Both the position numbers and the translations under genes were made by a program. From Acidobacteriota bacterium (GTDB lineage: Bacteria; Acidobacteriota; UBA6911; JACQSX01), in NCBI GenBank assembly GCA_036507075.1, contig DASXQR010000146.1:40662-104661 (forward strand): a stretch of DNA of 64,000 nt, written 5' to 3'. This document shows, in pieces, positions 3,213-32,295 of the stretch. Below the pieces are notes generated by a model. That model made no database searches. It had not been told where the DNA came from and saw nothing but the letters and a program-made list of their open reading frames with translations. The first letter of the stretch is position 1, and each line of letters begins with the position of its first letter.

Positions 3213-3629
3213 ATGCGGAGAGACGGTATGGGATTGTATGACTCAGAGATCCTGCTCTTTCAAACTTGTCGAGGTTTTGACGGCAGGACTCATCCCGTAG
3301 ACATCGGAAAACGTAACGGTCGGCTCGCCCTGCTGTTTCATCCCCGACTAGTCGCTCTCCCTTCCGGCATCGCAGCCAGTTGCGCTGAGGACCGAGCGCG
3401 CAGAAGAATTCGTCAAGCGTTCTTTTGGGGACTGACGCCCACGGAAAAGCGAACGTGGCAAAAGGCGCTCGAGGGCAGCTCTGTCCGGCAGATCGCGCGT
3501 GAGGAAGGCGTGAGTCGCTCGGCGATTTATGAGCGATTCCGGGGCAACTCTAAAGGTCAAGGCGGCATGATCGCCAAAAATCCCTATGTGGCCGTCTGGT
3601 GGTACTTCCGCTCGGAAAAGATTCTATGA
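3213..3629 (+). CDS. HTH (sigma region 4-like) protein
   Basis: LTPTEKR...GSSVRQIAREEGVSRSAIYER HTH; the stop overlaps the next ATG (ATGA). Confidence 0.65.
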   Translation: MRRDGMGLYDSEILLFQTCRGFDGRTHPVDIGKRNGRLALLFHPRLVALPSGIAASCAEDRARRRIRQAFFWGLTPTEKRTWQKALEGSSVRQIAREEGVSRSAIYERFRGNSKGQGGMIAKNPYVAVWWYFRSEKIL

Positions 3630-5002
3630 GCAAAATCGTCGAAAAATTTATTGCCGGGATTTGGAACCGGTCGGCTACCGAAGGCGAGCCCCAAGTAGTC
3701 ATTCGCGGTCTGGACCTTGGGCTGTCCATTGTTGACGGCCAGCTTACTCGGAGCCACACGGGCATTCCCCATTCCAAACGACCGGAGCACGTGGCGATCC
3801 TCGGAAAGACCGGCACCGGCAAGAGTTCACTACTTCGATATATGGCGCGCCAGGACATTGGTCGGGATCAAGGCTTTTGTTTCTTCGATCTTCATGGTGA
3901 CGCGACTTCTGTCCTGCTCGGCCTGGTGGCATCAGAGGAGCGAAGGAGTAGCCGGGACCTGAGTGAAAAGCTCGTCATTATTGAACCGGCTGACCGCGAG
4001 TTCTCGGTGGGCCTGAACGTGCTGGAGGAAACCGGCCTACAAAGCAGCTTTGTTCAGATCGCCGAGTTTGCGCAGATTCTAAAACAGCGCTGGCATTTGG
4101 ACGCCCTGGGCGCGAGAACCGAAGAACTGCTCCGAAACGCGCTCGCGGTCGCCTTGGACAACAATTTGACCTTACTCGAAGTGGCGCCGCTTCTAACCAA
4201 CCAAGCGTTTCGCGCCGCTTGTCTTCGCCGCACTGCCAATCCGGAAATCAAGGATTACTTCGAGGGACGCTACAACCGTGCAAGCGAAGGGATGCAGGCG
4301 ACGACCAACAACGCGATTCTGAACAAACTGACCGCTTTTACGGCCGATCCACACTTCCGCCACATTCTCGGCCAGCGGCAATCGACGTTTTCGCTTCTTG
4401 ATGCGCTGGACCACGGCTGTTGGGTCGTCGTGAATCTGGACAAAGGGCGCTTAGGAGAGCAGGCCGCAACGCTCGGAAGCCTGCTGTTGACCAAACTGAA
4501 AAACGCTCTGTTCTCCCGTCGCAGCCGGAACCTGTTCACCATTTACGCCGATGAAATTCAAAACCTGGTGACCTTTGACAGCGGCTTGGATGTGTTGCTT
4601 TCGGAAGCTCGAAAATTTGGTATCTCCGTCTGTTCGGCGAATCAATATCTTGATCAGTATCCCCAGCAGATGCGCGCGGCGATCATGGCGGTCGGCACGC
4701 ACGTTTGCTTCCAGCTTTCCGCCGCGGACGCCGACAAGCTCGGCGCGGCATTTGACGGCGGGAAAACTCTTGCTGAGATTCTGAAAAACCTCCCGCAGCG
4801 TCACATCGTAATCAAGTCCGGTCATCATCGATGGCGGCAGGCCGTGGTTCCTCAGATCGAAATCCCACAGGTTGACTGGAGAGATCTTTACAACAGATGT
4901 CGTCACCGATGGGCCAGACGGCGAACGGAGATTGACGCGGAAATCCGCGCACGCCAACAGCGTTTCAGTCGCCAGGATGAGGTGCTCGATGACTGGGAAT
5001 AA
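3626..5002 (+). CDS. Type IV coupling protein-like ATPase (VirD4/TraD/HerA-FtsK superfamily)
   Basis: Walker A GKTGTGKS, FDLHGD, Walker B IYADE, LLSEARKFG, ANQ. Confidence 0.85.
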   Translation: MSKIVEKFIAGIWNRSATEGEPQVVIRGLDLGLSIVDGQLTRSHTGIPHSKRPEHVAILGKTGTGKSSLLRYMARQDIGRDQGFCFFDLHGDATSVLLGLVASEERRSSRDLSEKLVIIEPADREFSVGLNVLEETGLQSSFVQIAEFAQILKQRWHLDALGARTEELLRNALAVALDNNLTLLEVAPLLTNQAFRAACLRRTANPEIKDYFEGRYNRASEGMQATTNNAILNKLTAFTADPHFRHILGQRQSTFSLLDALDHGCWVVVNLDKGRLGEQAATLGSLLLTKLKNALFSRRSRNLFTIYADEIQNLVTFDSGLDVLLSEARKFGISVCSANQYLDQYPQQMRAAIMAVGTHVCFQLSAADADKLGAAFDGGKTLAEILKNLPQRHIVIKSGHHRWRQAVVPQIEIPQVDWRDLYNRCRHRWARRRTEIDAEIRARQQRFSRQDEVLDDWE

Positions 5003-5753
5003 CAAGAAGGCGGTGGTGATCCAGGAACGCGACCGTTTGCTGTTTCGAGAGCTCTCGCGAATGAGGGTGATCGATCGGGAACAGGTCAAAGTGGTGGCAG
5101 GTTTCCGGTCCACGACTGCCGTCAACCTTCGCCTGTCGAAATTGCTTCACGCCGGTTTCTTGCGGCGCATCTTCATTGGTACTGCGCCAGGTAACAAGAA
5201 GGCACTGTATACGTTGTCCTCCACCAGCGCGGCGCTCGTGGGAGATGACCGATCTCGCAAGTCGCTCTCTCTGTCAGGAACCCTTGGCCTCGAGCATCAA
5301 CTTGCCGTCAACGCAATCTACCTGACCATCAAGTTCCACCCGATCGCAGTTAACGACCTTAGGTTTGAGCGCTGGATTACTTTCCGCCAGCCCCTTCCCG
5401 GCACCGCTTTGATTCCCGATGGGTACTTCGAGCTGCAGTCGCCAACCGGAATTCACCCAATGTTTTTGGAAGTGGATCTCGGCACCGAAGTCTCAAGAAT
5501 CTGGCGGGACAAGACGGCAGCCTATCTGCAGTTGGCCACCTCAGGTCAGTTTGAAAAGCTCTTTCATCAATCCAGATTCCGGGTCCTGGTCGTGGCCACT
5601 ACGAGGCGGCGCCTCGAAACCATCCGGTCGAGCGTTGCCAAATCCACTGAAAAGATCTTTTGGTTTTCCAACTTCGAGCAAATCAAAGGCAATTCCTTCT
5701 GGGCTTCGGTTTGGCTTCGACCGAAGGGCAACCAACTTCAATCACTTTTCTAA
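4989..5753 (+). CDS. Replication-relaxation (Replic_Relax) family protein
   Basis: N-terminal wHTH (QERDRLL..., RLSKL..AGFL), HQLAVN, IPDGYF, FLEVDLGTE, K..AY; adjacent to the coupling ATPase. Confidence 0.8.
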   Translation: MTGNNKKAVVIQERDRLLFRELSRMRVIDREQVKVVAGFRSTTAVNLRLSKLLHAGFLRRIFIGTAPGNKKALYTLSSTSAALVGDDRSRKSLSLSGTLGLEHQLAVNAIYLTIKFHPIAVNDLRFERWITFRQPLPGTALIPDGYFELQSPTGIHPMFLEVDLGTEVSRIWRDKTAAYLQLATSGQFEKLFHQSRFRVLVVATTRRRLETIRSSVAKSTEKIFWFSNFEQIKGNSFWASVWLRPKGNQLQSLF

Positions 5754-5762
5754 AGAATTCTT

Positions 5763-6194
5763 ATGCGCTATTGCAACAACTGTCATCGAATCACTGAAGG
5801 CGACCCGCTCTTTTGCCAGTTCTGCGCCAGAAGCTATGACGTCAAGCTCTGCCCTCATCGACACGTCAACCCGCGAATCGCCGATGTCTGTTCTGAATGC
5901 GGCTCGCGGGATCTGAGCACGCCGGCTCCCTCGATGGGACTCGGCAAGAGACTTCTCCTATTTTGCTTGTCGGCGGGCCCCGGCGTGTTCCTCTTGCTGA
6001 TGACGATCCTTCTCGTTGTCGGCTTCATCCAGGTCATCTTCGGCGATCCTGCAATGCTCTTCCGCTTCCTGATCTTGGCCTTGTTGTTCGGCATTCTCTG
6101 GCGGATTTATATGTTTTTCCCACCTCCGCTTCGCAACTTGTTCAAATCCATATGGCCCAAAACTCGACCCAAGCGACAAACGCCCAGGCACTGA
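5763..6194 (+). CDS. Zinc-ribbon membrane protein
   Basis: CNNC, CQFC, CPHRH and CSEC motifs followed by two hydrophobic helices. Confidence 0.7.
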   Translation: MRYCNNCHRITEGDPLFCQFCARSYDVKLCPHRHVNPRIADVCSECGSRDLSTPAPSMGLGKRLLLFCLSAGPGVFLLLMTILLVVGFIQVIFGDPAMLFRFLILALLFGILWRIYMFFPPPLRNLFKSIWPKTRPKRQTPRH

Positions 6195-6333
6195 TACCCC
6201 AACTCGCCGCGTCGGCCAAACGCGCAACCACGCCATTTTATTGGCTTTCTCTGGCCTATCCCATAGGCAGCCCTGCCTATGCCGGTGCCTACAACTCTGC
6301 CTATACCGAAACTCCCAACCCGAGGTGTCCCGC

Positions 6334-6618
6334 ATGAGTGAAGACATTCTTGGCAAGCCGATAAACATCCGTGACGTTGCCAAATTGATCGGCCTCTCGC
6401 CCTGGAGTGTAAGACACCGGCTCATCCCGAAGGGATTGCCGCACTTCCGCTCCGGGGCCAGCGGCAGGTTGATTTTCTACACCAACCAAGTCGTCCGCTG
6501 GATCGAAGACCAACAGAAAGGAGGGAAACAAAGTGGGTCTCTGGAAAAGAGGACAGGTCTGGTGGGCTTACTGGTACGTCGACGGCGTCCGGCACCAGGT
6601 ATCGACAGGCACAGGTAA
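6334..6618 (+). CDS. Excisionase-like HTH protein
   Basis: ATG at 6334 after GAGGT; INIRDVAKLIGLSPWSV...GLPHFR...LIF...V.RWIE; directly upstream of the integrase. Confidence 0.7.
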   Translation: MSEDILGKPINIRDVAKLIGLSPWSVRHRLIPKGLPHFRSGASGRLIFYTNQVVRWIEDQQKGGKQSGSLEKRTGLVGLLVRRRRPAPGIDRHR

Positions 6619-7573
6619 TCGAAGACAAGCCGAGAGCATCATGCAGAAGCTCAAGCAGGAGGCCAACGCGAGACGCCACCAACTAATCGAAGCGGACCCG
6701 CACATGACGTTTGGGGCCTTGGCCGCCAGGTTCATCGCAAACGGCAATCCGTCTCATCATCACCTGGAGCGGCTCGAAATGCTGCTTACGTACTTCGCCG
6801 ACACGCCGGTGGTGCGGATTAACCGGGCCATGGCGGGTGAGTACAGGGCGTGGCGCCACGCCGCCAAGCAAGTCTCCGACGCGACCATCAACCGGGATCT
6901 ATCCGTGATGCGGCGGCTGCTCTACTGGGGCGTCGAGCAATCCTTGTTGCTGGCAAACCCTCTAGCGCGCCTGCGAATGGAGAGGGAGCGCAGAACAGGA
7001 CGGCCGGTGGTCAGCATTGTCGAGGAAGCTAACCTTTTGAAAGCCGCAGCCGACCACCTGAAGGACATCATCGTCGCCGCGCTGGACACTGGCATGCGGC
7101 GCGGCGAGATCCTGCATCAACGGTGGGAGCACGTTGATTTTACGAGGCGCTTGCTCTTTGTCACCCGGTCAAAAACGCCCGAAGGGGAAGCCCGAGAGAT
7201 CCCGCTGACCCGGAGACTGCTGACCCTGCTCTGGAGTCGGCGGCAGCCCGAAGGCCTGATCTTCACCTTCAACCAGGTAGCCATTCGCGACATTAAGACT
7301 GCCTGGAAACGGACGCTGAAGAATTCAGGGAGCCGCCACATCCGCTTCCACGACCTGCGGCACACGTTCAACACCCGGCTGCTGGAAGCCGGAGTCATGC
7401 AAGAGGTGCGGATGGCCCTGATGGGTCATTCCAACCGCGAAAGAGTGCATTCCATTTACACCCACGTGGAACTGCCGGCTAAACGCGAAGCGATCGCGAA
7501 GCTTGAACAGTGGGTGCAAGACCAAAAGCAACTAAAGGGAGGAGGAGAAAATGCCATCACCCAAGCAGTCTGA
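6533..7573 (+). CDS. Tyrosine recombinase/integrase
   Basis: Catalytic R-K-H-R-H-Y set in DTGMRRGE, SKT, FHDLRH, MGH and IYTH. Confidence 0.95.
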   Translation: MGLWKRGQVWWAYWYVDGVRHQVSTGTGNRRQAESIMQKLKQEANARRHQLIEADPHMTFGALAARFIANGNPSHHHLERLEMLLTYFADTPVVRINRAMAGEYRAWRHAAKQVSDATINRDLSVMRRLLYWGVEQSLLLANPLARLRMERERRTGRPVVSIVEEANLLKAAADHLKDIIVAALDTGMRRGEILHQRWEHVDFTRRLLFVTRSKTPEGEAREIPLTRRLLTLLWSRRQPEGLIFTFNQVAIRDIKTAWKRTLKNSGSRHIRFHDLRHTFNTRLLEAGVMQEVRMALMGHSNRERVHSIYTHVELPAKREAIAKLEQWVQDQKQLKGGGENAITQAV

Positions 7574-7760
7574 AGCTGCCTCTGCAAAGGCCGCCTCAAC
7601 CGGACGAAAACCCTGGAAGAAAAGGACGCCTGTCGAAGTTGTATTGGAACAGGCCGACAAGCTCAAACAGGAGATCGCCCAGACCGAAGACGACCTGAAG
7701 CAAAAGCGCAAGCAGCTTGCCAAGTTCGAAGAGGCACGCAAGATCTTCGAAACAAGCTAA
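7551..7760 (+). CDS. Small basic coiled-coil protein
   Basis: ATG after GGAGGAG; 69 aa; followed by a terminator. Confidence 0.6.
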   Translation: MPSPKQSEAASAKAASTGRKPWKKRTPVEVVLEQADKLKQEIAQTEDDLKQKRKQLAKFEEARKIFETS

Positions 7761-7766
7761 ACAACC

Positions 7767-7806
7767 AAGGAGTTTGCCCGATGGGGGCAAACTCCTTTTC
7801 TTTTTT
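7767..7806 (+). terminator. Rho-independent terminator
   Basis: AAGGAGTTTGCCC-gatgg-GGGCAAACTCCTT stem followed by a T tract. Confidence 0.8.
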
Positions 7807-8786
7807 GACCCAGACCCGGCCTCCTTACAGGGGAGTGTCAGAATCAAATTAGGGGCAATGACGCCTCAAATCCAATCAGGGAGAGAAACATGAAGCGAAG
7901 TATCCATAAAGAGAGCGGCATCGGACGAGATGCCTCGGGATGTTGAAGTCGAACCGGGAACGACGGCCTATGACCTCTGAATTTCGATCCGCACCAGCAT
8001 GCCATCGGCACCGCTAACGGCGAAATCCTGCACGGCAACGATGCGCTCTATTCCAAGGTGAGCGAAGGCGAACAAGCTGCTGGTCACCTCGGGAGAAAAG
8101 TCTTTTTTTCTTCCCAGGGGCGCCCGACCATTTTCCTGCGATCCTGCCGGTAGCCCCGAGGGTGGCTGTTCTGGAATCTCGTCGCTCGCATGGCGTTGGT
8201 CCCCCCCCATTTTTTTTCTTCCCAGGACAGATCGCGGACCACCGAATCATCGATCCATTGGGGCACCATTTGATTCCTGACCGAAGTGGCCTGCAGCCAA
8301 ACGCAAGAGTTGATTGCTCCTTGGTGCGCGTCGGCTGGTGTGCGCAAGGCTCGTTGTGGCGGATCCGCTCGGGGGGCGCGCCGCAAGAGAAAAGGGTTAC
8401 TTCCCCCAAGGCCCCGGTCAGGATATGCCGAGAGATCGCCATTTTGACTGAGAAATTTCTCACCAGAAAAGACCTGCGAAATTCGCAGACTTGTCACCGG
8501 CCGATGACGTCACAAGCACTCTCGAAGGTCGGCGAACAAAGGAGAGTAAACCCCACAAAGGGTGGTACAGTTCGGAGCATTAGGAAGAACAGTTTTGGTA
8601 TAACCAATATTGCTTGACTCCTCTGCGCTGTTTTTGCGGATAATTGCGCCAACAGCAAGAGCAATTCTCCCGGACTCTTGTTTTTCTCAAGACTCGAAGA
8701 CGGCACGGCGTAGGTGACCTTCCACGTCAGGAGCCATCGGAGTGACGAGGAAACGTAATTGTCGGGCTGCGTATTGGAGGCACATC

Positions 8787-9257
8787 ATGGGGACCAAGCA
8801 AACCACGAAACGAGGTACGGACAGGACGAGGTCGAAGCAGCGACTGAAAGCACTTGCCCGTCGGTACGCGCAGGTCTTGCGCGGGATTAACACCCAGGAG
8901 GCCGCACGACGCAAGCTCTCAAAGGAACTCTATGAGCTCGCGTTGGATTCCGAAGATGCGGAGCTGGCGTTACACGAGCACACCTTCGGCCCCCGCAAGA
9001 CCAAGCCAGTTGTCAAACATGTGCCATTGGCGAGTCCGGAAGCGGCGTTATGGCTGATGTGCTGCAATATTTGGGTGCCCCTGCCGATCATCGTGTGCAT
9101 CCTTGCTGGGTGCCCGCCCGTCCTGCTGCCCCCGGGCAGAGTCTGCTTTTTAATAAACTGTCAGATGAAGGTCCGTTCTCGAATCGCAGGCCCCTGCCCT
9201 AGAACGACAGCCAAACGAGTCAGACTGCGTTTTCTATTGACCTGGACTGACACGTAG
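8787..9257 (+). CDS. Hypothetical protein, basic N-terminus and Cys/Pro-rich C-terminus
   Basis: ATG at 8787 after GGAGG. Confidence 0.55.
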   Translation: MGTKQTTKRGTDRTRSKQRLKALARRYAQVLRGINTQEAARRKLSKELYELALDSEDAELALHEHTFGPRKTKPVVKHVPLASPEAALWLMCCNIWVPLPIIVCILAGCPPVLLPPGRVCFLINCQMKVRSRIAGPCPRTTAKRVRLRFLLTWTDT

Positions 9258-9321
9258 GAGCAAGCTTTGTGAAACCCCAAGGAAGTTGGACTCCGAGGCT
9301 AAACCTGCTTAAAAGACTACG

Positions 9322-10602
9322 GTGTTGCTCACAATGAACACAGAGTATGTCATTGACGCCCTAAGCATCTGCAAAGAAAGGCCCGGCCAGACAAGGCTTT
9401 CCATACTGCTTACGCTATTGCTTGAACTAAGACGACGTGGTGATTTGTTCTTCTGTGTCTTCGATCAGTCAGCATTTCACGAGTTTAATAAAAGGGGGGG
9501 TACACAGTCGAAGCTGTACCAACAACTTCGAAGACATCCTAAATATTTTTCTCAAGTGCGCGGTCAGGCAGATGTCAAGATTCTTGACCTTGCCGAGCGG
9601 AATCACTCACGGATCATTAGTAACGACAATTTTCGGGAGCACCGGGCAGCTTACCGTTGGTTGCAATCAGACAAAGATCGTCTAATAAACGTTAGTGTAG
9701 TGAAAGATCGAATTATTTGTGAACCACTGGCTATAAACGTGTCTGAGATCACCGACGAAGCTCAACTTTGGAAGGACCTCGAGACAACTCTAGTTGGTGA
9801 CGTTGTCACACCGCCGCCTCCGCAAACACTACTACGCTCCGCTAACCCATCACCAGCAAAGTCCGCGAAGGCCCAAGGAGGCGATGATTTCGTTGCTTTA
9901 ACGCAGCCTTCAGGATCCCCTCCGGCAACGGGAATCCATCAACACGCCGCGAATTCTAAAGGAGGTGCTGCAGTGGAACAGAGAATAGGAACGATAACCG
10001 AAACAAAGGCTCGTGAGCAGCTCGGAATCTTGGTACTTGATGGATCGGGATCTATGAGTGCCCAAGGGGAGACGAATTTGACGAAAGCCGGTGAGGTCAA
10101 CATCGCCGTTCAGGGTCTTATGGCGCGACTTAGAATTTCAAGGCTAAGGGAGAATTTCTATTTGGCAATTATTACTTACGATGATCAAGTTAATTCGAGC
10201 CGCCTACCGCCCACTCCAGTTACTCAGGTCGATCCGACCTCCGACTACAACCCGCTCCACGGCCATGGAAATGAGACCGCCATTGGCGATGCTCTAAATG
10301 CGGCTGCATCTGTCGCATTTCAGTTCCTGTCTGAACAACAAAGCTTTCCCCGCTCAGTAGTAATTGTCTTAATGACTGATGGCCAAAACAATTGTGGTCA
10401 GGACCCGGTCGAGGTCGCAAATAAGATCAAAAACAGCGGCAAACGTATCACTATATGCGCTGCTGGCTATGGGAAGGGCGACGATGTGGATGCCCTAACC
10501 CTGCAAAAGCTTGTGACCGATGGCAACGGATATGTGCGTGCATACGATCCAGAAGTGCTTCGTAAGTTCTTTGAAGCAAGTATTAGCAGGGTCAGAGGCT
10601 GA
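9322..10602 (+). CDS. NYN/PIN (Zc3h12a-like) ribonuclease fused to a TerY-like vWA domain
   Basis: N-terminal YVIDA, FDQS, ADVKIL, IISNDNFRE; Pro/Ala/Ser linker; vWA MIDAS LDGSGSM...ETAIG...MTDG. Confidence 0.8.
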   Translation: MLLTMNTEYVIDALSICKERPGQTRLSILLTLLLELRRRGDLFFCVFDQSAFHEFNKRGGTQSKLYQQLRRHPKYFSQVRGQADVKILDLAERNHSRIISNDNFREHRAAYRWLQSDKDRLINVSVVKDRIICEPLAINVSEITDEAQLWKDLETTLVGDVVTPPPPQTLLRSANPSPAKSAKAQGGDDFVALTQPSGSPPATGIHQHAANSKGGAAVEQRIGTITETKAREQLGILVLDGSGSMSAQGETNLTKAGEVNIAVQGLMARLRISRLRENFYLAIITYDDQVNSSRLPPTPVTQVDPTSDYNPLHGHGNETAIGDALNAAASVAFQFLSEQQSFPRSVVIVLMTDGQNNCGQDPVEVANKIKNSGKRITICAAGYGKGDDVDALTLQKLVTDGNGYVRAYDPEVLRKFFEASISRVRG

Positions 10603-10614
10603 CATCTAAACTTC

Positions 10615-11646
10615 ATGCTTCGGAAATTCTTGCGCTGGCCGCGCATTAAAGGGCCTAACATTAAGAAGCAGCCCGACGGCGGGCTTCGTGCTGACGCACC
10701 TTTAGAAACTGCGACAAGCAGGGATTCTACACTCGCCCAACTACCCCCAGGAACCACGTCCCTCATACCAAAAAGACCGCAAAGAGCGGCCGCTGTGAGT
10801 AGTAAGGCTGCCAAATTGACGAATGAAGATCACTGCGACTTGTATAGGAGTGATCGGATCCTTGCGGTTGCACTTGCTGACGGCCTCGGCTCATCCGCCG
10901 ACAGCTCAGTTGCTGCAAAGTTAGCTGTCAAGACTTTTTTGCACCAAGTGGAACAAGTTGATGCGGAGCTCCGAGAAGTATCAATTGCGGACCTTCACAG
11001 TTTTTGGAATCGCACGTCACAGAAAATAACAAATCACTTTCAGACTAATTTCGCCAAATATGCTGGTCTAGCGCATCCCCTTGAGACGACCTTGATTACG
11101 GTAGTCGACCAGGGAGATAGTTACCTAATCAGTTACTTGGGGAATGGCAGCATCTGGTATGTCCGGGGCGACTTCTGGGAGTTTCTGGATCGCCGTTGGC
11201 CATGGTCAATCTCCGACTTACTTATAAGTCAAAGCGTTCTCGACGATGACGGTCGTGATGCGCTCTATGGATTGATCGGTCATACCGGCCTACACGGAGA
11301 GATTCGAACACTCATAGTCAACAAAGATCATCACCGCGGTGAGATACTTATCGTGACAACAGACGGAATAAGCTCTCCAGATCACCTAAAAGTCGGCCAC
11401 GACCCGAACAACAAACTGTGGCTAGAGGTTAATCCCTACATTGAGCGACTACTGCGTGACCACCTGCGCCGCTATCTCACGTCCAATTCGCCGAGCGTGA
11501 CATGCCGTAACGGCTGCCTTCAAAAAGTCTTGGACGATTTTCTTACCGTGGAAACCTTCGATGACGACGCCAGTCTCGGTATTATTGTTTCAGACTCGGT
11601 CTTCACCTATCCCAACAGAAACCATCTGGCAGCTCATAGCAAATGA
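10615..11646 (+). CDS. PP2C-like protein phosphatase (TerY-P/YegK type)
   Basis: NEDH, ALADGLGS, TTL, TTDGI, DDDASL. Confidence 0.85.
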   Translation: MLRKFLRWPRIKGPNIKKQPDGGLRADAPLETATSRDSTLAQLPPGTTSLIPKRPQRAAAVSSKAAKLTNEDHCDLYRSDRILAVALADGLGSSADSSVAAKLAVKTFLHQVEQVDAELREVSIADLHSFWNRTSQKITNHFQTNFAKYAGLAHPLETTLITVVDQGDSYLISYLGNGSIWYVRGDFWEFLDRRWPWSISDLLISQSVLDDDGRDALYGLIGHTGLHGEIRTLIVNKDHHRGEILIVTTDGISSPDHLKVGHDPNNKLWLEVNPYIERLLRDHLRRYLTSNSPSVTCRNGCLQKVLDDFLTVETFDDDASLGIIVSDSVFTYPNRNHLAAHSK

Positions 11647-13355
11647 GGATCACAGTCCGCCCCGGCTCGTGCGTATCAACTGGTTTGTCGAATGTTCCTT
11701 CTCACAGCGAGGCGCACTCGATCCTTATACATAGTGTACATTTCAACGAGGGCGGTCAGGGAAAGATCTACAAAGTAGACCAGATAGACGGCAGAGGCAG
11801 TTCTGACCTAGTCTTGAAGTTGTTTGACGCTGGAATCCCTTCCACCTTGAAACAGATAGCGGCTGCAGTCCGGGACGGCATATCGTGTCACAACATTCGT
11901 CAAGTAAGCTCTCTACGAGCTCTACCCCTTTTTCTTTTTGAAGGCACGGCGTCCGGTCATGCTGTGATGGGTTATGTGATGCGCGAGGTGCCTGGCCGAG
12001 CGTTTAGCGAGATTTTGGAAGGGCACCTAGACGACTATCTCACTCTTAGCCTCAACGATCGACTCGACTTATGTCGTCAGTTTGTAGAGGGAATGTGGAT
12101 CCTTTATGCTCTCACGATTGTTCATGCGGATCTAAATGGTCAGAATCTGATGATTGACCTATCTAACAGGACTCTGGCGATCATTGATGTGGACGGCGGC
12201 GCCGTCGCAAGAAGTGGCTCTGTCCCAATCGTTGTCAAACAGGAGCCAGGATGGCTTGCTCCAGAGATATTCGCTCAGCTAAGCAGAACGATCAGGGCCG
12301 AACCTGTTTTTGTCAGCATGGAGGCAGACCTCTGGTCTATCGCCTCTGGGGTTCACTACTTACTATTCGGAATGTCTCCCTTCTTTTTTATCGCTAATCA
12401 GCCCGACATACCTGAATATCTGCGTCGGTATCAATGGCCAGAGCACCGAGGCGTTCATACTATCGCAACAAGAAATCACCATGCTTTCCGACATTACGAG
12501 GATGTGTATTCTCAAGTGCCCGACTTGCACAGGATGTTTTTTGTGACCTTCCAAGAGGGTTATGAAAATCCGTCGCGACGAATAGCCGCATATACTTGGC
12601 TCCAGGTGATCAGCGGCGTCTTAAAGTCGACGGGTCATTCCGAACGGCGTTCTCCAGTGAAACCGCAGCCAGAGGAACCAGCTGTCGTATCGCCTCTGCC
12701 AGCCCAACCGAGACGGCCCGTTGCCCGTCCCCCGTCCCCGCTTAGGCCGCCAGTCCAAAAACCCGCTCCCAAACCACCGCCCCCAGTGATTCCTTTCGGC
12801 CCAAAACCGCCGACACTGGTGGGACAGCGCAGGCAGAGTTCGTTCACGGTGTTTGCGGTCGCTGCAATAGCGGCGATCCTCGGTGTGGCCATCGTCGCGG
12901 TTATGCTGAATCCAGACGTAACCCGGCCTTCGATAGAAACGTTTACTGTCAACCCTGCGACCCTGCAGGCTGGTGAGCATGCCACCATTCGATGGGTTGT
13001 AAGAAACGCGGGGGAGGTCAGAATCGACAATGGCATCGGTATTGTCGCTACCAGCGGGAACATCGATATTACTCCACCGATGTCTACAGTGTATCGCCTC
13101 ACTGCGACGTCATCCGTGGGTACGATCGAGGGAGAGGCTGTGGTGGCAGTTGCCGCGCCTCCGCCCCCACCGCCACAGGAGAAAACGGCCGCCGACTACG
13201 TCCAAGAGGCCAATGTTTTGTATGAAAATCGACAGTATCTCAGAGCGATAGACGCTTGTGATAAGGCATTGGTTATATCTCCCGATGATCAAGAGGCTAC
13301 GCGCTTGAAAGCGCAGATCAGGAACACAATCGAGATCTTGAATGGATCGAAATGA
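11643..13355 (+). CDS. Ser/Thr kinase (YegI/TerY-P type) with Pro-rich linker, TM helix, Ig-like and TPR domains
   Basis: EGGQGKIY, VLKLF, HADLNGQN, IDVD, WLAPE, DLWS; TM VFAVAAIAAILGVAIVAVML; ATGA overlap with the PP2C gene. Confidence 0.87.
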   Translation: MRITVRPGSCVSTGLSNVPSHSEAHSILIHSVHFNEGGQGKIYKVDQIDGRGSSDLVLKLFDAGIPSTLKQIAAAVRDGISCHNIRQVSSLRALPLFLFEGTASGHAVMGYVMREVPGRAFSEILEGHLDDYLTLSLNDRLDLCRQFVEGMWILYALTIVHADLNGQNLMIDLSNRTLAIIDVDGGAVARSGSVPIVVKQEPGWLAPEIFAQLSRTIRAEPVFVSMEADLWSIASGVHYLLFGMSPFFFIANQPDIPEYLRRYQWPEHRGVHTIATRNHHAFRHYEDVYSQVPDLHRMFFVTFQEGYENPSRRIAAYTWLQVISGVLKSTGHSERRSPVKPQPEEPAVVSPLPAQPRRPVARPPSPLRPPVQKPAPKPPPPVIPFGPKPPTLVGQRRQSSFTVFAVAAIAAILGVAIVAVMLNPDVTRPSIETFTVNPATLQAGEHATIRWVVRNAGEVRIDNGIGIVATSGNIDITPPMSTVYRLTATSSVGTIEGEAVVAVAAPPPPPPQEKTAADYVQEANVLYENRQYLRAIDACDKALVISPDDQEATRLKAQIRNTIEILNGSK

Positions 13356-13396
13356 CTTAAATCGCGACTATTTGACTGGAATATGGTCGGCAGAAT

Positions 13397-13759
13397 CTAT
13401 TTGGAAAGAGATTGTCGATACGTACCCGCTAGTTGGACATTGCCTTCTCTATCCATCCTGATTTGCAAGATCTGGCCATTGATACCGACGAATTGGTGTT
13501 CCACATATGGACCGGTTATTTTTTGGTGTTGGTTGTTCCAACCTTGAAGCATTTTGAAAAAACTCTCCGGTGTTAAGCTGGGATTTCGTATTAACTGGAT
13601 TGAGGCCTGTAATTCAGCAGATGCCGCTATGAACGTATCTAAGCGTCGCTTCTCCCCAGATATGTATGGATCGTATATTTCGTCTATTTTCTTAGGCAAA
13701 ATAGATTCTTCGGCCTCGCCGTTTTCTGGCATAAAGGGCCGCTCGCCTTCTCGCGGCAT
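13397..13759 (-). CDS. Hypothetical protein
   Basis: 120-aa ORF with plausible composition; no recognised motif. Confidence 0.45.
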   Translation of the reverse strand: MPREGERPFMPENGEAEESILPKKIDEIYDPYISGEKRRLDTFIAASAELQASIQLIRNPSLTPESFFKMLQGWNNQHQKITGPYVEHQFVGINGQILQIRMDREGNVQLAGTYRQSLSK

Positions 13760-13934
13760 GTTGTAGTAGGAGATTTAATGAGTCAGACTGAGTCCCGCTG
13801 GAGGGGTTGGGGTAATAGTAACAGTCTAGTGAGAACTGTCAAGCAAGCCAGTAGCAATGTTAGAAGAATCGGTTGTCGCGAGTACGTTAGCAAATCTTCG
13901 CCAGCGAGGAGCTGGCCCCAAAACAATCGCGAGT

Positions 13935-14400
13935 TCGAATCCACAGGGTGTGAGATCTCAGTCGATGGGCTTTATCGTGGCAGACCTGACACTCGTGGCA
14001 GGCTAACAGTCTCCGACCTTGAGCCTGGCAGCCATAATCTCATCGCCACACAACGGCCTCGTTACCGCGATGAAACCGTTGAAGTCGTGTATCACCTGGT
14101 CAGAATACGATAACTGCGACGCTCCAAATGGCAGTTGGTTTCCTTATGTCAATCGTGATCATTACCGGACTCCAACCGCAGGCTACGCCTTTGACTCTTG
14201 ATCGGATCGAAACGATTAATTGAATCAGAAGCAACTGACGCCCCTCATTGCGGGCGAGATGACCGCCAGAGGCCTGCGGTTTCCCGTCGGCGCGAGGTCA
14301 TTGACGCGCACTCAGCCAACGGGGACAGGACCTAAGAGACTGGGAGCACTGAGTCGGTTCCTTGTCAGTCTGCACGTTGGTCATTTCGAATCGAGTTGCC
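13935..14400 (+). pseudogene. Degenerate fragments of a PEGA-domain gene paralogous to 15086-17188
   Basis: CEISVDGLYRGRPDTRGRLTVSDLEPGSH and IAGEMTARGLRF...ALSRFL match segments of the intact gene. Confidence 0.6.
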
Positions 14401-14700
14401 TAAATGTGATATGATCGCCGATGGAATTGAGCGTGGTGGCACGGACTTCTTTGGCACGTTAGCAGTTTCCGACGGTTGACCCCGGCACCCGCTCCGTTGG
14501 ACCGAGTGGCCTCGGTACCGCTATGAGAGTGTTCACGCGCGCCTAACTCCGGGGCAGAATCTAGTCGGAGTGCCCTTGCGTCTGGGAGCCTTTATATCGA
14601 ACGCACTTCGTCAGATTAGCAGTCAGTTCGCGGGACGTGTTCTTCGACGTTTTGGGCGACACTTGCACTTTCAAGCCATTTACCAACTCAGAGGATATCG

Positions 14701-14859
14701 ATGAGAATCTGTGACAAGTGTGGCAAAGAGCGTGTTTTGGATGGCGGGAGGACATGTGAGACGGGCCACTTCATATGTAAAAAGTGCGTTTGGGAAACAG
14801 CCAGCTTCTTTAGTGCAGAGCGAAAACACTGTCCGCTTTGCAAGAAGACCCTAAGATAA
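14701..14859 (+). CDS. Stand-alone C3HC4 RING finger protein (52 aa, absent from the ORF track)
   Basis: MRICDKCGKERVLDGGRTCETGHFICKKCVWETASFFSAERKHCPLCKKTLR*; GAGGA SD upstream. Confidence 0.8.
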   Translation: MRICDKCGKERVLDGGRTCETGHFICKKCVWETASFFSAERKHCPLCKKTLR

Positions 14860-14887
14860 ATCGTACTCTGGACAGAGGGAATCCAGC

Positions 14888-15070
14888 ATGGAGTCTATTG
14901 GGGGCTTACTGCTGATAATTGTCGTGCTTTGCCTTATGCTTGGTGCTCTTTCCAGAATGATTCTTCCTCCGCGACTAAGAGAAAGCGGGTGGCCTCGCCT
15001 GGCCCGGAATCTTTTCCGTGCCCTTTGGTCTCACTTGCAAGGACGAAGGTCCGGAAAGTTTCGGCCCTGA
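14888..15070 (+). CDS. Small membrane protein
   Basis: ATG after GAGGGA; N-terminal hydrophobic helix and basic tail. Confidence 0.6.
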   Translation: MESIGGLLLIIVVLCLMLGALSRMILPPRLRESGWPRLARNLFRALWSHLQGRRSGKFRP

Positions 15071-15085
15071 GGTCCGTTTACACCA

Positions 15086-17188
15086 ATGTTTGGATCGGAG
15101 ATATTTCCATGTCCGACGGCCAAGCGAATAAGTACGCGATGGACTATCTTGTTGTGTATTCTCACCGTCCTCCTTGGGATCCGGCTGATCGGCCAGGAAC
15201 GAGCCTTGAGCCTTGAGCAGGTTCAAAAGCTAGTCGACCAAAAGGTGCCGGATGTAGTTATTGCTGGTGAAATCCAGGACCGCGGCTTGGGATTTGATGT
15301 TTACCGCAGTACGATAACGCACTTCCAACGCCGAGGAGCCGGACCCCAGACCGTGCGCGCGTTATCACGATTTCTTCTTACCGCGAGCCTTGTCGTTTGG
15401 ACGAATCCACCGAATTGCGAAGTTTATATGGACGGTTTGCATCGTGGCCAAACCGATAGCGTGGGTAAATTAGAAGTATCTGGTCTGGAACCCGGCAGGC
15501 ACGCCGTAATGGTCTCTAAGGCGAACTATTCTGGAAGAGATGCGGAAGCCATGGTTTCACCAGGGCAGAATCTTTTAAGAGTGGAGTTGCAAAGGGCCGT
15601 GGGTTATTTGACAGTATCCCCCAAGACTTCGGGAACGCATATTGCAGTTAAGGGATTGGGGAATTATGACAACTCTATTCGAGATCTTGAATGTTCACCC
15701 GGCGTCTACGACATCACTGTATCAAGGTCATATTTCAAAACATTCACGACACGAGTAACCATCTTGGCAGGACGGAAGGTCGAAATTTCACCGGCCCTCG
15801 ACTTCGATCCTCGTATCCAGTGGAAGCAGCTCAAGAATGGGCTAACTAACATTAACGTTTATTGTATCGGTATTGACGAGCGTCAGAGACTCTACGCGGG
15901 GACGGGGAATGGGGTCTTTGTTAAGTCTGCAAACGCCGACTCTTGGAGCTTTTGGGCGCTTAAGGGCCTTGAAGTGAGGTCTCTCTCAATCGATCCCAAA
16001 AACTCCGATATAGTTTACGTCGCTCTCGAGCATGGAGGCGTCGTCAAGACCACGAATGGGGGAGCCTCGTGGCATCGAATTGATAAAGGACTGCCCAACA
16101 CAAATGTCAATGCTCTCGCTGTGGATCCTCGAAACAACCGTGTTGTCTACGCTGGTCCAGACGCCTTTGGTATCTGGAGGACCATTGACGGTGGCAGCAA
16201 CTGGCGCAGAGTTGGTCCCGGTCGAGATGTCAGGTCGTTCTCGATAGACCTGCTAACCACCGGCATCTTATACGCCTCTACTTCGACTGGCATCATGAAA
16301 ACCGTTGATCTAGGTACCACGTGGTATTCTCTAAACTCGGGTCTTCCAAACCCTTTTATAAATGGGTTGAGCATAGATCCCACGAAGTCGGAAATATTGT
16401 TTGCAGGGCCGTCTGGTCGCGGCGTTTGGAAGAGTGTCGATGGTGGGGCGACCTGGTTCGAGGTGAACAACGAACTTACAAAGGCCGTCACGATTTTGGC
16501 ATTTATTGTCCATCCGCAAAACTCTCAGATAGTTTATGCAGCGTCAGACGCCGCTGGTGTGTTTCAAACAATCGACGGGGGATTGAGTTGGTCTCCCATT
16601 AATAATGGACTTGGCAATCTAACGATTGGACGGCATGCGGTCGTGATCGATCCCAATGATGGAAGGGGCGGTGTGATGTACGTGGGAACCGTTGGTGCCG
16701 GTGTATTTACAACTGCCCTTCCTGCGCTCACGATCTTGTCTGAAATGGCTAACTCGCAAATGAGCTCCTCCTCGACAAAGTTTGTGGCTACTCTGAATTG
16801 CGCGCTTGACTCTGGTGTGATCACTGTTCGTGCAGATTCGCCAAATGGTGCAAGTTTTGAAAATTCCTGCGACAAACAAATCACGGTTCAGTTCAAAGCT
16901 GCCGGAAGGTGGAGTTTCCGGCCAGCCGAAGGTCTTCACGGCGCTTCTGGACACACGACCTATCCTGTTACTTCCTTTTCGAGAGCAAAGTACAGGGTTG
17001 AAAGCGCTCCGCCTGGTAGTCTCGTCATTCGACGCCAAGGCGGCAGTTATCAATTTGTCGGAGATGCAGGGACACTGATTCTACATGAGCATGAGACTGT
17101 GGCTTTTGTGATGAACGATGAACCGAATGGCTATTGGGATAATCGAGGCAGCGTCGAGGTGTCATGGCGTTGTATAGATTGTGAGTAG
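15086..17188 (+). CDS. Exported PEGA-domain / BNR (Asp-box) beta-propeller protein with a C-terminal LecA/PA-IL-like domain
   Basis: N-terminal hydrophobic helix; PEGA-like repeats; T/S-x-DGG-x-W repeats; C-terminal AAGRWS...FVMNDEPNGYWDNRGSV. Confidence 0.75.
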   Translation: MFGSEIFPCPTAKRISTRWTILLCILTVLLGIRLIGQERALSLEQVQKLVDQKVPDVVIAGEIQDRGLGFDVYRSTITHFQRRGAGPQTVRALSRFLLTASLVVWTNPPNCEVYMDGLHRGQTDSVGKLEVSGLEPGRHAVMVSKANYSGRDAEAMVSPGQNLLRVELQRAVGYLTVSPKTSGTHIAVKGLGNYDNSIRDLECSPGVYDITVSRSYFKTFTTRVTILAGRKVEISPALDFDPRIQWKQLKNGLTNINVYCIGIDERQRLYAGTGNGVFVKSANADSWSFWALKGLEVRSLSIDPKNSDIVYVALEHGGVVKTTNGGASWHRIDKGLPNTNVNALAVDPRNNRVVYAGPDAFGIWRTIDGGSNWRRVGPGRDVRSFSIDLLTTGILYASTSTGIMKTVDLGTTWYSLNSGLPNPFINGLSIDPTKSEILFAGPSGRGVWKSVDGGATWFEVNNELTKAVTILAFIVHPQNSQIVYAASDAAGVFQTIDGGLSWSPINNGLGNLTIGRHAVVIDPNDGRGGVMYVGTVGAGVFTTALPALTILSEMANSQMSSSSTKFVATLNCALDSGVITVRADSPNGASFENSCDKQITVQFKAAGRWSFRPAEGLHGASGHTTYPVTSFSRAKYRVESAPPGSLVIRRQGGSYQFVGDAGTLILHEHETVAFVMNDEPNGYWDNRGSVEVSWRCIDCE

Positions 17189-17334
17189 TTAACTGGCTCC
17201 TCTCCCTAGCAGGAGGGCATTTCGACGTACACCGAGCCGACTAAACCTGGGAAGCGTGGCTTCGTCCCGTGTCATCCGATAGCTAGTTCCCAACTGGGGA
17301 TTAAGTTGACTTTGGCGCTTTAACTGGAGAACAT

Positions 17335-17964
17335 ATGGGTGTGACACATAAAACCTTAACAACGCTGTTCCTGACAATGTGTATCGCGGGCAGTTTGACA
17401 CTCACCACACAAGGTGCGCCGATAGAACAGATGTCCAGTCTCGGCCTTGACAATACGGAAATGGTTGTCAGTCTTAATACTCCGATTAGTACGAAGGCGT
17501 CGAGGAGAGGAGATACATTCGCTGCTCAGATCGTTTCACCAGAGGAATACCGCAGTGGAACTATTGAGGGACACATCAATAGTGTGAAGAGAGCGAAGAA
17601 AAGGAATAGAGCGGAAATCCTGTTCGTCTTCGAGACGATAACGATGAATGGTAACAATTACCTCATCAGAGCTGATTTGACAAACGTTGCAAATTCGAAG
17701 GGTGTCAAAGAAGTGGATGAAGAAGGCCGAGCGATAGGTAAAACGTCGAGGAAGAAAGCCATCGGCTCAGCCGCGGCAGGAGCTACTATTGGCGCTATCA
17801 TTGGTGCCATAGCAGGCGGCGGAAAGGGAGCTGCTCAAGGCGCAGGTGCTGGCGCTATTGCGGGTCTCCTGATAGGTATCACGTTCACCACTGCTAGTTC
17901 GGACCTGGAATTTGCTCCGGGTTCACAATTCACCATCATGGTATCGGATAGATCACGGGAGTAG
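17335..17964 (+). CDS. Exported glycine-zipper protein
   Basis: SD GGAGAA; signal peptide; LNTPIST...GDTF; GAIIGAIAGGGKGAAQGAGAG. Confidence 0.75.
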   Translation: MGVTHKTLTTLFLTMCIAGSLTLTTQGAPIEQMSSLGLDNTEMVVSLNTPISTKASRRGDTFAAQIVSPEEYRSGTIEGHINSVKRAKKRNRAEILFVFETITMNGNNYLIRADLTNVANSKGVKEVDEEGRAIGKTSRKKAIGSAAAGATIGAIIGAIAGGGKGAAQGAGAGAIAGLLIGITFTTASSDLEFAPGSQFTIMVSDRSRE

Positions 17965-18186
17965 ACTGAGCACGTCGTTTGTGCGGAAGAAGGCGCTGCA
18001 AGAAGGAGGGATGGCAACCAGTTCCTGAGGGCATACTATCGATGTGGATTCGCACTTAAATCGCCGTGGACTGCGAACCCGGGTGATTCCCGAGAACAGG
18101 CACAGAACATGGTCGCGCGTTCGGAAAAGCGGTATCATAACTAGATGCTAACTAACGGCTCGGCCTTATGCCGGAGTTGACACTCA

Positions 18187-18441
18187 ATGAGGCCGTCGAG
18201 CAACTATTGCAGACATTGCCTCCGAGATCAGAACAAATTCGGTTGTCGTCGTATGAAACACCACCGCAATTTACGCCTGCTTTTAACAGATGATGAATGC
18301 TATCTAGCTGAAGTCAACAAGGATCAACCACGACATCTCATTGATGTTCGACGGCTCCACAAGAAGCCCGGCGTTCTGAGGGTTATCCGTCAAATGATTC
18401 GAGAGATGCAGCGTTCCTTACATCGATGGAATCTTGAGTGA
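18187..18441 (+). CDS. Small basic hypothetical protein coupled to the NYN gene
   Basis: The stop overlaps the GTG start of the next gene (GTGA). Confidence 0.4.
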   Translation: MRPSSNYCRHCLRDQNKFGCRRMKHHRNLRLLLTDDECYLAEVNKDQPRHLIDVRRLHKKPGVLRVIRQMIREMQRSLHRWNLE

Positions 18442-19022
18442 GCGCACCACGACCATTTCCTGAAGGCATCTACCAAGCCGCGAAACTCATGTTCTTCATC
18501 GATGGTGAGAACCTTGCAATTCGTTACGGCAGCATCTTGGCTGACGGAGAGACGCAGGACCACGTGGAATATGAGCCTAATGTCTTCGTTTGGTCGCGCA
18601 TCGCTAATGTTACCCAGCACACGCGGTGGGAGGTGCTGCGCCGGTATTACTACACGTCGATCCAGGGCGACGTCGTGAGACTCGAGGAGATTGAGGAACG
18701 ACTAAAGGGTCTTGGTGTTGAGTCACCGCGCGTTTTTAAGAAACATGCGGGAAAGCGGTCGAAGCGCGTTGATATTTCGCTTGCAACCGACATGCTCACC
18801 CACGCGCACCGCAAGAACTACGATGTCGCGGTACTCATTGCTGGCGATGAGGATTACGTCCCACTCGTGGATGCTGTCATGGGAGAGGGCAGACGCGTCC
18901 TTGTGTGGTTCTTCGAGAAGGGATTAAACCCGACTCTCCGCCGCAGAGCTGATTATTTCTTTGACATCGGCAAGTTTTTTTTCCAATCTCGAAAGGACCT
19001 CGGGATTTACGGTTGGATCTGA
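18438..19022 (+). CDS. NYN domain protein (LabA/DUF88 PIN-like)
   Basis: FIDGENL, KRVDISLATDML, AVLIAGDEDYVPLV, ADYF. Confidence 0.9.
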   Translation: MSAPRPFPEGIYQAAKLMFFIDGENLAIRYGSILADGETQDHVEYEPNVFVWSRIANVTQHTRWEVLRRYYYTSIQGDVVRLEEIEERLKGLGVESPRVFKKHAGKRSKRVDISLATDMLTHAHRKNYDVAVLIAGDEDYVPLVDAVMGEGRRVLVWFFEKGLNPTLRRRADYFFDIGKFFFQSRKDLGIYGWI

Positions 19023-19442
19023 ATGGGTTATTGCCAAATCTCACTTCAGTCGCCAGCCCAAGTTCGGGTTATAGCTCGTGACCTGGAGCGGCGTCCCCGC
19101 GAGTGTGATTAGTGGGGTTGCTGTTCCCGACGTTGATTCCCGACACAGTGACGAGTTGCTTGACAACATTCGCCTCAACCTTAATGACAACCGCGGACTG
19201 TCTGACAAAAAAGTTAAAACCAATCAAACACACCCCCCGGGAAAGGTTATGAAAACCCCCTGCGGGTAAGCCCGTGAAAATCCACAGGAGGGATATCTAA
19301 GCCGGGTCGAAGAATCGTCAGCGCGGCTCGCGGATGAGCGGCAGGTTGTGAGAACGATGGAGGTGACAATATCGCGGGAAGAACTGGTGCCCTGTGGGCT
19401 TCAGTCTAGGCTTTTTCTGTTGACCCTTTCGTAAAGCGCATG

Positions 19443-19451
19443 TGCTATAAT
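19443..19451 (+). promoter_or_regulatory. Extended -10 promoter
   Basis: TGcTATAAT upstream of the 19619 ORF. Confidence 0.45.
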
Positions 19452-19618
19452 TTGGTGTCCCAGTTTAAGAGAGCGTAATCTTCGACGATCCTTCTGACCC
19501 TCTGATTTTCCAGGCCCTTGAGGCACTCCGAGATGCCGTCCACAAGAAAAGGGCAGAACTCACACGAGCGATAAAGCGGCAGGATAAGTCGGCTTCTTCG
19601 TCGCAACCCGATGACGAA

Positions 19619-21082: not shown

Positions 21083-21584
21083 TGCGGGGATTCGGATTAT
21101 TTATGACCGAGACGACCGCTAGCTGCCGATGGTCTCGTGAAGGAACCATCCCTGCTGGAACTGGGCCAAACTGTGGTGAACAGGGTGAATCGAGTAGTCA
21201 TAATTATTAACGCAAAGCGACTTTTCGTCGAATGGGCCGATCGCTTCGATGACGGCGGTAAGTCTTTCGGAGTGCAGATTCGGCTGAACTGCCTTTCTCG
21301 TTCCGGTATTCGAATGTGACGAAAATTTCCCCACATTCATCAAGGCTCATTACGCCGAGATTTTTGAGAACGCACTTGAGACTTGGATGCTGAAGTCTCG
21401 GTCAGGGTCCGGTTGAGATCGAACGGTGAAGGGTTCCCGAAGTGCAAAACTTTCTGTAGTTAAAAACGTAGCTACAAGGGCTACGGGCTTCAATAAATCG
21501 CAACAGGTTTCAATAAGAATGCCATAAGCGCTTGAAAAGTAAGTAGTTGGAAATAGGCAATTTGCGGCGTTTGCCGCGAACGGA

Positions 21585-29443: not shown

Positions 29444-32295
<2,852 letters not shown>

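Follow-up and report, generated by a model that had tools for sequence, protein, structure and literature searches.

A predicted Regnase-type RNase domain fused to the vWA protein of a vWA–phosphatase–kinase operon, with a putative internal start, on an Acidobacteriota genomic island

Overview

A three-gene operon encoding a vWA protein, a PP2C phosphatase and a Ser/Thr kinase was analysed in a 64,000 nt stretch of DNA from Acidobacteriota bacterium (GCA_036507075.1, contig DASXQR010000146.1, positions 40,662–104,661, forward strand). This whole stretch is referred to as the window, and coordinates are those of the window unless another prefix is given. The vWA gene begins with a predicted ribonuclease domain of the Regnase/Zc3h12a (PIN/NYN) type, and carries a second, strong translation start signal at the codon where stand-alone relatives of the vWA protein begin. 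The reading that we favour, and to which we give about even chances, is that the operon yields a minor, RNase-armed and an abundant, unarmed vWA protein, that both dock on the kinase, and that the RNase is kept in check until a signal shifts the balance between kinase and PP2C and releases it.

Organization of the operon

The operon consists of three co-oriented open reading frames (ORFs) on the + strand (9322/9334–10602, 10615–11646 and 11643–13355). A 12-nt gap separates the vWA and PP2C ORFs, and the PP2C and kinase ORFs share a 4-nt ATGA overlap. Pfam searches identified RNase_Zc3h12a (PF11977, 24.6 bits against a cut-off of 23, E 2.3e-5) and VWA (E 1.6e-13) in the product of the first ORF (P0001), PP2C_2 (E 8.2e-13) in that of the second (P0002), and Pkinase (E 1.4e-11) with a weak TPR match at residues 519–559 in that of the third (P0003). 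As judged from sequence, the catalytic motifs are complete in all three proteins: the metal-ion-dependent adhesion site (MIDAS) of the vWA domain is intact (D240-x-S242-x-S244, T319, D353), and the kinase has K59, D163, N168 and D182. The linked triad with an intact MIDAS that an earlier note on this DNA had described is thus borne out. That note took GTG 9322 as the start of the first ORF; ATG 9334 is the likely start, because the sequences of relatives, which open with MNT-, start at this point and the recorded protein has 422 aa. Residues of P0001 (D12, D240 and so on) are nevertheless counted from 9322. The PP2C start is ambiguous, at 10615 or, as called by one source, at GTG 10795. The main features are listed below; SD denotes a Shine–Dalgarno sequence, TM transmembrane and pLDDT the predicted local distance difference test.

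9334–10602, + strand: long ORF, NYN (Zc3h12a-type PIN)–linker–vWA; 422 aa from ATG 9334; weak SD, -3.0 kcal/mol
9334–9798, + strand: Regnase/Zc3h12a-like PIN domain; D12, D48, D84, D102, E106; Ser at residue 15
9799–9972, + strand: linker of 58 codons, rich in Ala/Pro/Ser/Gly/Thr; open in this frame only; low pLDDT
9959–9975, + strand: internal ribosome-binding site and start; AAGGAGGT at 9959–9966, 6-nt spacer, GTG 9973
9973–10602, + strand: predicted short product, TerY/YegL-like vWA; 209 aa; MIDAS intact; residues 3–14 predicted kinase dock
10615–11646, + strand: PP2C phosphatase; metal-binding D72, D89, D250 and D317/D318 conserved; start 10615 or 10795
11643–13355, + strand: YegI-type Ser/Thr kinase; K59, HAD163LNGQN, D182-x-D-G-G; Pro-rich stretch, one TM helix, beta-rich repeat-like domain, TPR
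12846–12908, + strand: predicted TM helix of the kinase, aa 402–422; mean Kyte–Doolittle value 2.78 over 21 residues

The C-terminal domain of the kinase resembles the repeats of the kinase at a related locus, L016 (E 1.9e-8). A promoter scan found two candidates against 5.0 expected, none of them assignable.

The N-terminal domain resembles Regnase-type PIN domains

In the AlphaFold model of P0001, residues 11–160 have pLDDT values of 87–97 per block. Residues 3–137 superpose on the PIN domain of ZC3H12C (7ndj_A) with a Z score of 13.3 and a root-mean-square deviation of 2.7 over 131 aligned residues (VIA structure comparison); the matches listed by Foldseek for the whole P0001 model were all to vWA domains. 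Profile matches were obtained to KHNYN (E 1.7e-4) and ZC3H12A (E 2.2e-3). Sequence and model together support the assignment of the domain to the Zc3h12a-type PIN fold, as the earlier note had proposed. The acidic motifs that it had singled out (VID, AD and SND) are real and correspond to D12, D84 and D102, to which D48 is to be added.

A word-index search with residues 1–165 gave no homologues, whereas an index-free search with the N-terminal domain retrieved 340 proteins at E <= 0.001 among 1.84 billion representatives; the blank result therefore reflects a limit of sensitivity. It is apparent from the aligned homologues that the acids are strongly conserved (D12 in 150/153, D48 in 152/153, D84 and D102 each in 153/153). 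D12, D84 and D102 correspond to D141, D226 and D244 of MCPIP1, and D248 of that protein is replaced by Glu (E106). The domain thus shares its fold and most of its acids with Regnase-1/MCPIP1, ZC3H12C and KHNYN (PF11977), and differs from Regnase-1/MCPIP1 in that it has no CCCH zinc finger, has Ala at the position of D225, and has the extra invariant D48. RNase activity of the domain is likely on these grounds. In a 2017 survey of PIN domains the function of bacterial RNase_Zc3h12a proteins is listed as unknown (PMC5499597).

The bacterial Regnase-like family appears promiscuous in its fusion partners. vWA fusions account for seven of the 150 best NYN matches (83/150 were scanned by Pfam, and all 150 by motif and by our own profile). 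Zc3h12a-type NYN domains were found joined to three further vWA types (P0004, P0005, P0006 and P0052; P0155; P0079 and P0151), and other homologues carry S1, CSD+LRR, IF2_N, TPR, ricin-B or Lcl domains. In the NYN tree, which was computed from 66/153 sequences, the clade of the query (SH-aLRT 99) has five members, all of them fused to vWA domains of three unrelated types.

A second start signal lies inside the fused gene

The sequence AAGGAGGT is a perfect complement of the 16S rRNA tail of this genome, with a pairing energy of -11.2 kcal/mol compared with -3.0 kcal/mol for ATG 9334. Among the 749,168 internal codons that the long ORFs of the genome contain, only 2 have a comparable in-frame combination of SD and start codon, and GTG 9973 is one of them. 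Stand-alone relatives start exactly at P0001 residue 218, the codon GTG 9973, which lies 22 residues before the MIDAS Asp; this is also the modal start distance among 79 matches with an N-terminal vWA domain (75 of the 79 calls fall at 21–37). The predicted RNA folds around both starts are unremarkable, and the upstream ATG lies inside a predicted stem that is itself not unusual (z 0.17).

Because a strong internal SD and GTG have been retained inside the fusion, the gene is likely to make two products, the 422-aa NYN–vWA protein and a 209-aa vWA protein. Judged by the SD strengths, the short one is probably the more abundant. The earlier note had described a simple NYN–vWA fusion; the fusion is real, and what it overlooked is the internal start signal at 9959–9975. 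A vWA pool that is mostly unarmed would alter the mechanism, and it also leaves room for a recent and incidental fusion, which is weighed in the Discussion.

The short vWA protein is predicted to dock on the kinase

A three-chain complex of kinase residues 1–330, PP2C and the short vWA protein was modelled in three runs, with three controls. The vWA–kinase score was 0.70 (0.00, 0.77 and 0.70 in the individual runs) against 0.00 for the best control, and it was lost when the kinase was replaced. The mark used for docking is reached by 116/157 solved complexes and by 2/215 mismatched pairs, figures that apply only approximately to a job of this kind. Agreement between the runs covers at least 0 % of contacts, with a partner pLDDT of at least 78. 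The best-defined modelled contacts are those of vWA residues 8–13 with kinase residues 245–256 and 277–281; others involve the P+1 region (199–205) and the Gly-rich loop (40–41) of the kinase. The model supports docking of the N-terminal segment of the vWA protein (residues 3–14) on the C-lobe of the kinase, near the P+1 loop. This segment, which contains three Thr, directly follows the linker and the internal start and would be present in both forms. Since no close solved relative of the vWA protein or the kinase was found, recall of a known complex by the modelling program is unlikely. No PP2C contact is listed for the complex model, which is not evidence against PP2C binding.

Relatives of the vWA protein carry unrelated N-terminal domains

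A PP2C profile retrieved 27 loci, 16 of which (L002–L017) belong to the family. The vWA gene precedes the PP2C gene in 13/16 of these and a kinase gene follows in 11/16; the remainder end at contig edges. As the earlier note had expected, the vWA protein is usually stand-alone in the related loci. The 94 matches of a vWA-family profile comprise 79 proteins with an N-terminal vWA domain, five fragments, four weak and unrelated matches, a more distant NYN–vWA protein (P0151) and five proteins with N-terminal add-ons. P0224 and P0229 carry an NYN domain, P0195 and P0198 have one that is Lon-like, with P0212 as a partial third case of the latter, and P0244 has an unassigned domain, tentatively called ubiquitin-like and with no Pfam match. 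The label 'Lon-like' rests on weak leads, namely a profile match to LonC (4fw9, E 0.068), an Atlas lead (0.85) and what we take to be Ser–Lys motifs; the structure model of P0195 is unusable (pLDDT 33). The fusion is therefore not peculiar to this genome, a concern that the earlier note had raised.

All of the five extended relatives keep a Met 22–36 residues before the MIDAS Asp, for each of which the expectation by chance is about 18 %. P0224 and P0229 are 39 % identical to each other in the NYN domain and 52 % in the vWA domain, and both have the internal Met. Since the identity of their NYN domains has fallen to 39 %, the fusion in this pair is old and the Met has been kept. In a quick-search tree of 84 vWA sequences (fragments without the MIDAS motif and the weak matches P0272–P0278 were left out), the query nests among stand-alone proteins and P0224/P0229 fall in another clade with a support of 100; the NYN tree also places these two together (support 95). 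A single origin of the two fusions was rejected by an approximately unbiased test on 34 sequences (p 4.8e-6). These trees indicate that the same vWA family gained an NYN domain independently elsewhere. In our reading the vWA protein serves as a carrier, to which effectors have been attached more than once within the family.

A more general form of this idea treats the vWA gene of this triad subfamily as an effector slot with exchangeable occupants, organized as a gene within a gene. Unrelated toxins would be placed before a vWA protein with its own start, armed and unarmed forms would compete for a single docking site on the membrane sensor kinase, and the toxin would be fired by the balance between this kinase and PP2C. 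This version counts the Regnase-like RNase at least twice, and the Lon-like protease, as occupants of the slot. We offer it tentatively, as a possibility that on present evidence is more doubtful than probable.

The arrangement recalls the Rpn proteins (bioRxiv 2023.05.02.539157), which likewise combine an N-terminal nuclease with a C-terminal domain that has its own in-frame start, in an anti-phage context. There is no homology between the two; the nuclease is a PD-(D/E)xK DNase in Rpn and a predicted RNase domain here, and the C-terminal part is here a conserved vWA domain predicted to bind a kinase. The internal in-frame start typical of Rpn is seen at the level of sequence signals, as an SD and GTG at the homologous stand-alone start. 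It might be proposed, then, that the locus is an intragenic toxin–antitoxin system in which the short vWA protein binds and neutralizes the long form, with kinase and phosphatase merely modulating. The shared layout (bioRxiv 2023.05.02.539157) and the Met kept in 5/5 extended relatives are in keeping with this proposal. The NYN clade, however, is found on unrelated vWA types and this vWA on unrelated effectors, which argues against a specific NYN–vWA interface, and the proposal is considered improbable.

A scan of species genomes for other NYN–vWA neighbourhoods gave one locus (L029), with an NYN domain and no vWA beside an ECF-like/phage-like cluster. Viral scans for such fusions gave nothing relevant, and plasmid searches by tblastn gave weak single-domain matches only. 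No member of the vWA family turned up in the 400 other genomes of the phylum that were searched, and no close PP2C in 60 relatives, which is consistent with horizontal cargo.

Some features of the related triads may be recorded here. Two of them (L013:9727–12597 and L015:8866–11764) have two tandem kinases and are preceded by an ATPase with a weak likeness to FtsK and by a MORN protein. The kinase tails vary within the family: L004/L005 have a zinc ribbon, L006/L008 a TM helix together with beta domains, and L016 repeats. In the closest triad, L002 (9014–10563), the kinase is split over two frames.

Comparison with known systems

The TerY-P triad is reportedly due to Anantharaman 2012, and its anti-phage version to Gao 2020. 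All three proteins of the operon align to those of E. coli yegL-pphC-yegI (hhalign probabilities of 89 for YegL, with E 2.2e-6 and 26 % identity, 80 for PphC and 94 for YegI), at only 19–26 % identity, and relatives of the vWA protein are named YegL by JGI. The E. coli pphC and yegI genes have the same 4-nt ATGA overlap (bioRxiv 819920). Because of these alignments and the shared overlap, the locus can, at the sequence level, be classed broadly with the TerY-P triads, as a distant subfamily. The differences from E. coli are that YegL is stand-alone and that YegI, a membrane kinase with both ends inside, has two TM helices (bioRxiv 819920) and the present kinase one.

TerY-P has been described with a stand-alone vWA protein and proposed to be a phospho-switch (PMC11090510, PMC4978471, PMC7159879, PMC7699616), and a TerY-P triad is protective against T7-like phages (PMC7699616). 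The present operon resembles it in the order of vWA, PP2C and Ser/Thr kinase, in their tight coupling and in the defence-island setting. It differs in the PIN RNase domain and internal start of the vWA gene, from which a stand-alone vWA protein is predicted in addition to the fused one, and in a kinase that ends in a TM helix, a beta-rich domain and a TPR instead of a zinc ribbon or OB fold. Identity with the anti-phage TerY-P of Gao 2020 was rejected, as the TerY model of PADLOC is unmatched and the kinase C-terminus is not an OB fold; the likeness to TerY-P and yegLKI drawn in the earlier note holds, therefore, in the broad sense.

The MoxR–vWA ternary conflict systems also place variable effectors, PIN RNases included, on a vWA polypeptide (PMC7159879, PMC8195603). 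PMC12839542 contributes nothing further on this point. In those systems the effectors usually sit at the C-terminus and act with a MoxR ATPase as partner, whereas here the effector is N-terminal and the partners are a kinase and a phosphatase; no MoxR was found among the annotated ORFs of the island described below. The literature consulted gave no description of an NYN–vWA protein in a triad or of an internal vWA start, and the supplements to the TerY-P and conflict-system papers may list the architecture.

The operon lies on a genomic island

The operon is situated on an element of 38.6 kb, which is bounded on one side by tRNA-Val(TAC) and on the other by a second copy of the 3′ end of that tRNA, as follows.

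G000:C146:23730–23806, 16.9 kb upstream of the window: left end of the island, intact tRNA-Val
3599–7573, + strand: mobility module (Pfam); coupling-protein-like ATPase, Replic_Relax (relaxase-like) protein and tyrosine integrase (6533–7573)
21585–21675, + strand: right end of the island, where the 3′ end of tRNA-Val(TAC) recurs, 90 % over 91 nt

The G+C content of the island is 52.8 %, compared with 56.1 % for the genome. The same island encodes SspB, SspC and SspD (PADLOC E 3.5e-92, 0 and 4.6e-116), and further cargo includes RadC and a serine recombinase. The claim that the operon is cargo of an integrative element is upheld by the repeated tRNA end. The island carries other defence genes as well.

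A contig from the Logan assemblies spans 9452–10524 (NYN, linker and vWA) with zero differences, and contigs from a second study match other parts. The identical sequence across the junction rules out an assembly artefact as the source of the fusion, as the earlier note had asked to be considered. Since the run behind this contig (X1) is possibly the source sample itself, the assembly is independent and the sample may not be. No RNA data set was listed among those that contain the sequence. Contig depth within the island (7000–22000) is 6.6–9.7 in X1 and about 3–6 in a second run (X2), and beyond the right end 14.9 and 9.6, respectively; this gives a weak hint that part of the population is without the island.

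It could be argued that the operon is regulatory rather than defensive, an envelope- or metal-stress signalling triad in which the tethered PIN domain would process particular mRNAs or tRNAs in the manner of Regnase-1, without lethal effect. The predicted TM helix and extracytoplasmic domain of the kinase would fit such a role, as would the proposal that TerY-P is a metal-sensing phospho-switch (PMC11090510), the membrane location of E. coli YegI (bioRxiv 819920), the unknown function listed for bacterial RNase_Zc3h12a proteins (PMC5499597) and the fusion of NYN homologues to the RNA-binding domains S1, CSD and IF2_N. The presence of SspBCD and of a caspase–helicase gene on the same mobile island, however, speaks against it, as do the failure to find the family in the 400 other genomes, the lack of an RNA-binding specificity domain in P0001, and the interchange of RNase and Lon-like protease, which suggests generic toxic effectors. 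We regard a regulatory role as unlikely.

Other genes and repeats near the operon were noted. A 156-aa ORF with a good SD lies just upstream of it (8787–9257), with a basic N-terminus and a Cys/Pro-rich hydrophobic C-terminal half; it has no Pfam match, and nothing matching it was found at the related loci or in the rest of the genome. The SspB-SspC-SspD phosphorothioation genes are at the left end of the island (L001:4810–10064; G000:C146:26309–31563), and SspE was not found among the ORFs scanned. A MORC-like ATPase follows SspD on the opposite strand (L001:10198–11994). A candidate defence gene at L001:13056–16133 encodes a 1025-aa protein in which a caspase (Peptidase_C14) is fused to a DEAD/Ski2-like helicase, with HamB-like matches. 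The island has a second, unrelated and stand-alone NYN protein at 18438–19022 (PF01936, E 4e-21; PADLOC HEC-09, E 2.4e-10), followed by an ORF of 487 aa (19619–21082) with no Pfam, PADLOC or NCBIfam match. Near the left edge of the window, a 468-aa protein (1705–3111, − strand) with, by eye, a winged-helix-like N-terminus and TPRs is convergent with a D12-class adenine methylase (951–1763).

Pieces of tRNA-Val(TAC) occur at four places in the contig, a stray 5′ half at G000:C146:19549–19586, the intact gene at 23730–23806 and 3′ halves at 62246–62336 and 79050–79115, which suggests a hot spot with tandem islands, the second running from window position 21675 to about 38454. In the neighbouring island an ORF at 24800–26008 (− strand) is reverse transcriptase/maturase-like, by eye of the group II intron type. 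An acyl-CoA synthetase–ACP–acyltransferase-like ORF (by eye) with a long EQ/Q repeat tract is present at 29440–32295 (− strand).

Discussion

In the mechanism that we propose, the membrane kinase would dock the vWA protein, and abundant short and scarce armed forms would compete for one docking site. PP2C would hold the resting state. The extracytoplasmic domain of the kinase may read a signal of stress or infection, and the switch may consist in altered phosphorylation of the vWA segment or of the linker. Such a shift would free or cluster the RNase so that RNA is cleaved, and this might end in growth arrest or in abortive infection.

A number of observations weigh against this proposal. The TerY model of PADLOC does not match the vWA protein, and its PP2C model matches with an E value of only 2.1e-4. 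One of the three docking runs scored 0.00. In P0224, P0229, P0195 and P0198 a Met is all that is visible of an internal start, without a ribosome-binding site, and its distance is 24 residues in some and 36 in others; among NYN–vWA fusions, the triad setting is shown for the query alone. Several related triads lie amid housekeeping or membrane genes and not defence genes (L002, L008). The NYN domain of the query has Ser at residue 15, where 148/153 homologues have Asn, an objection that is softened by the full activity of MCPIP1 N144A (PMC3413151). The position of MCPIP1 D225 is Ala in the query and in 153/153 homologues, and D225A abolishes the activity of MCPIP1 (PMC3413151); the invariant D48 is a plausible substitute for it. 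Finally, no NYN match was found in any of the 27 PP2C-related loci, so the triad works without this domain, and the vWA domain of the query is 62–73 % identical to stand-alone relatives, so that the fusion is young and the SD may be a relic.

These last points lead to the alternative that an NYN and linker fragment of an unrelated NYN–vWA gene landed in frame upstream of the vWA gene recently and by chance, that the otherwise ordinary triad still runs on the short vWA protein made from the original start, and that the long form is rare, unregulated or decaying. The contrast between the strong internal and the weak upstream SD fits this account, as do the upstream ATG within a predicted, though not unusual, stem, the nested position of the query vWA among stand-alone relatives (62–73 % identity to the close ones), the Asn-to-Ser change at a near-invariant site, the junction of the nearest NYN relatives to other vWA types, and the 0/27 count just mentioned. 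It is countered by the uninterrupted reading frame of the NYN domain and linker, in which none of the four invariant Asp has been lost, by the independent acquisition of NYN in the same vWA family, where the P0224/P0229 fusion has lasted to 39 % NYN identity, and by the 7/150 best NYN homologues that are fused to vWA, so that the pairing recurs. On balance this account seems rather unlikely.

If the armed and unarmed vWA proteins act as proposed, the operon would be a likely new way of placing a toxic enzyme under phosphorylation control. No target or effector of TerY-P triads is reported in the literature consulted; here a putative effector is physically attached, and the kinase–vWA interface is predicted at the level of residues. 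The layout of the gene permits clean separation-of-function mutants in the upstream start, the internal start, the NYN acids, the kinase and the phosphatase. The locus can thus be added to the candidates for genes-within-genes that function in defence, and it is a compact test bed for the function of bacterial Regnase-family RNases. Should the idea of an exchangeable effector slot prove true, it would provide a first function for the bacterial Regnase-type RNases, under the control of a kinase as in animal innate immunity.

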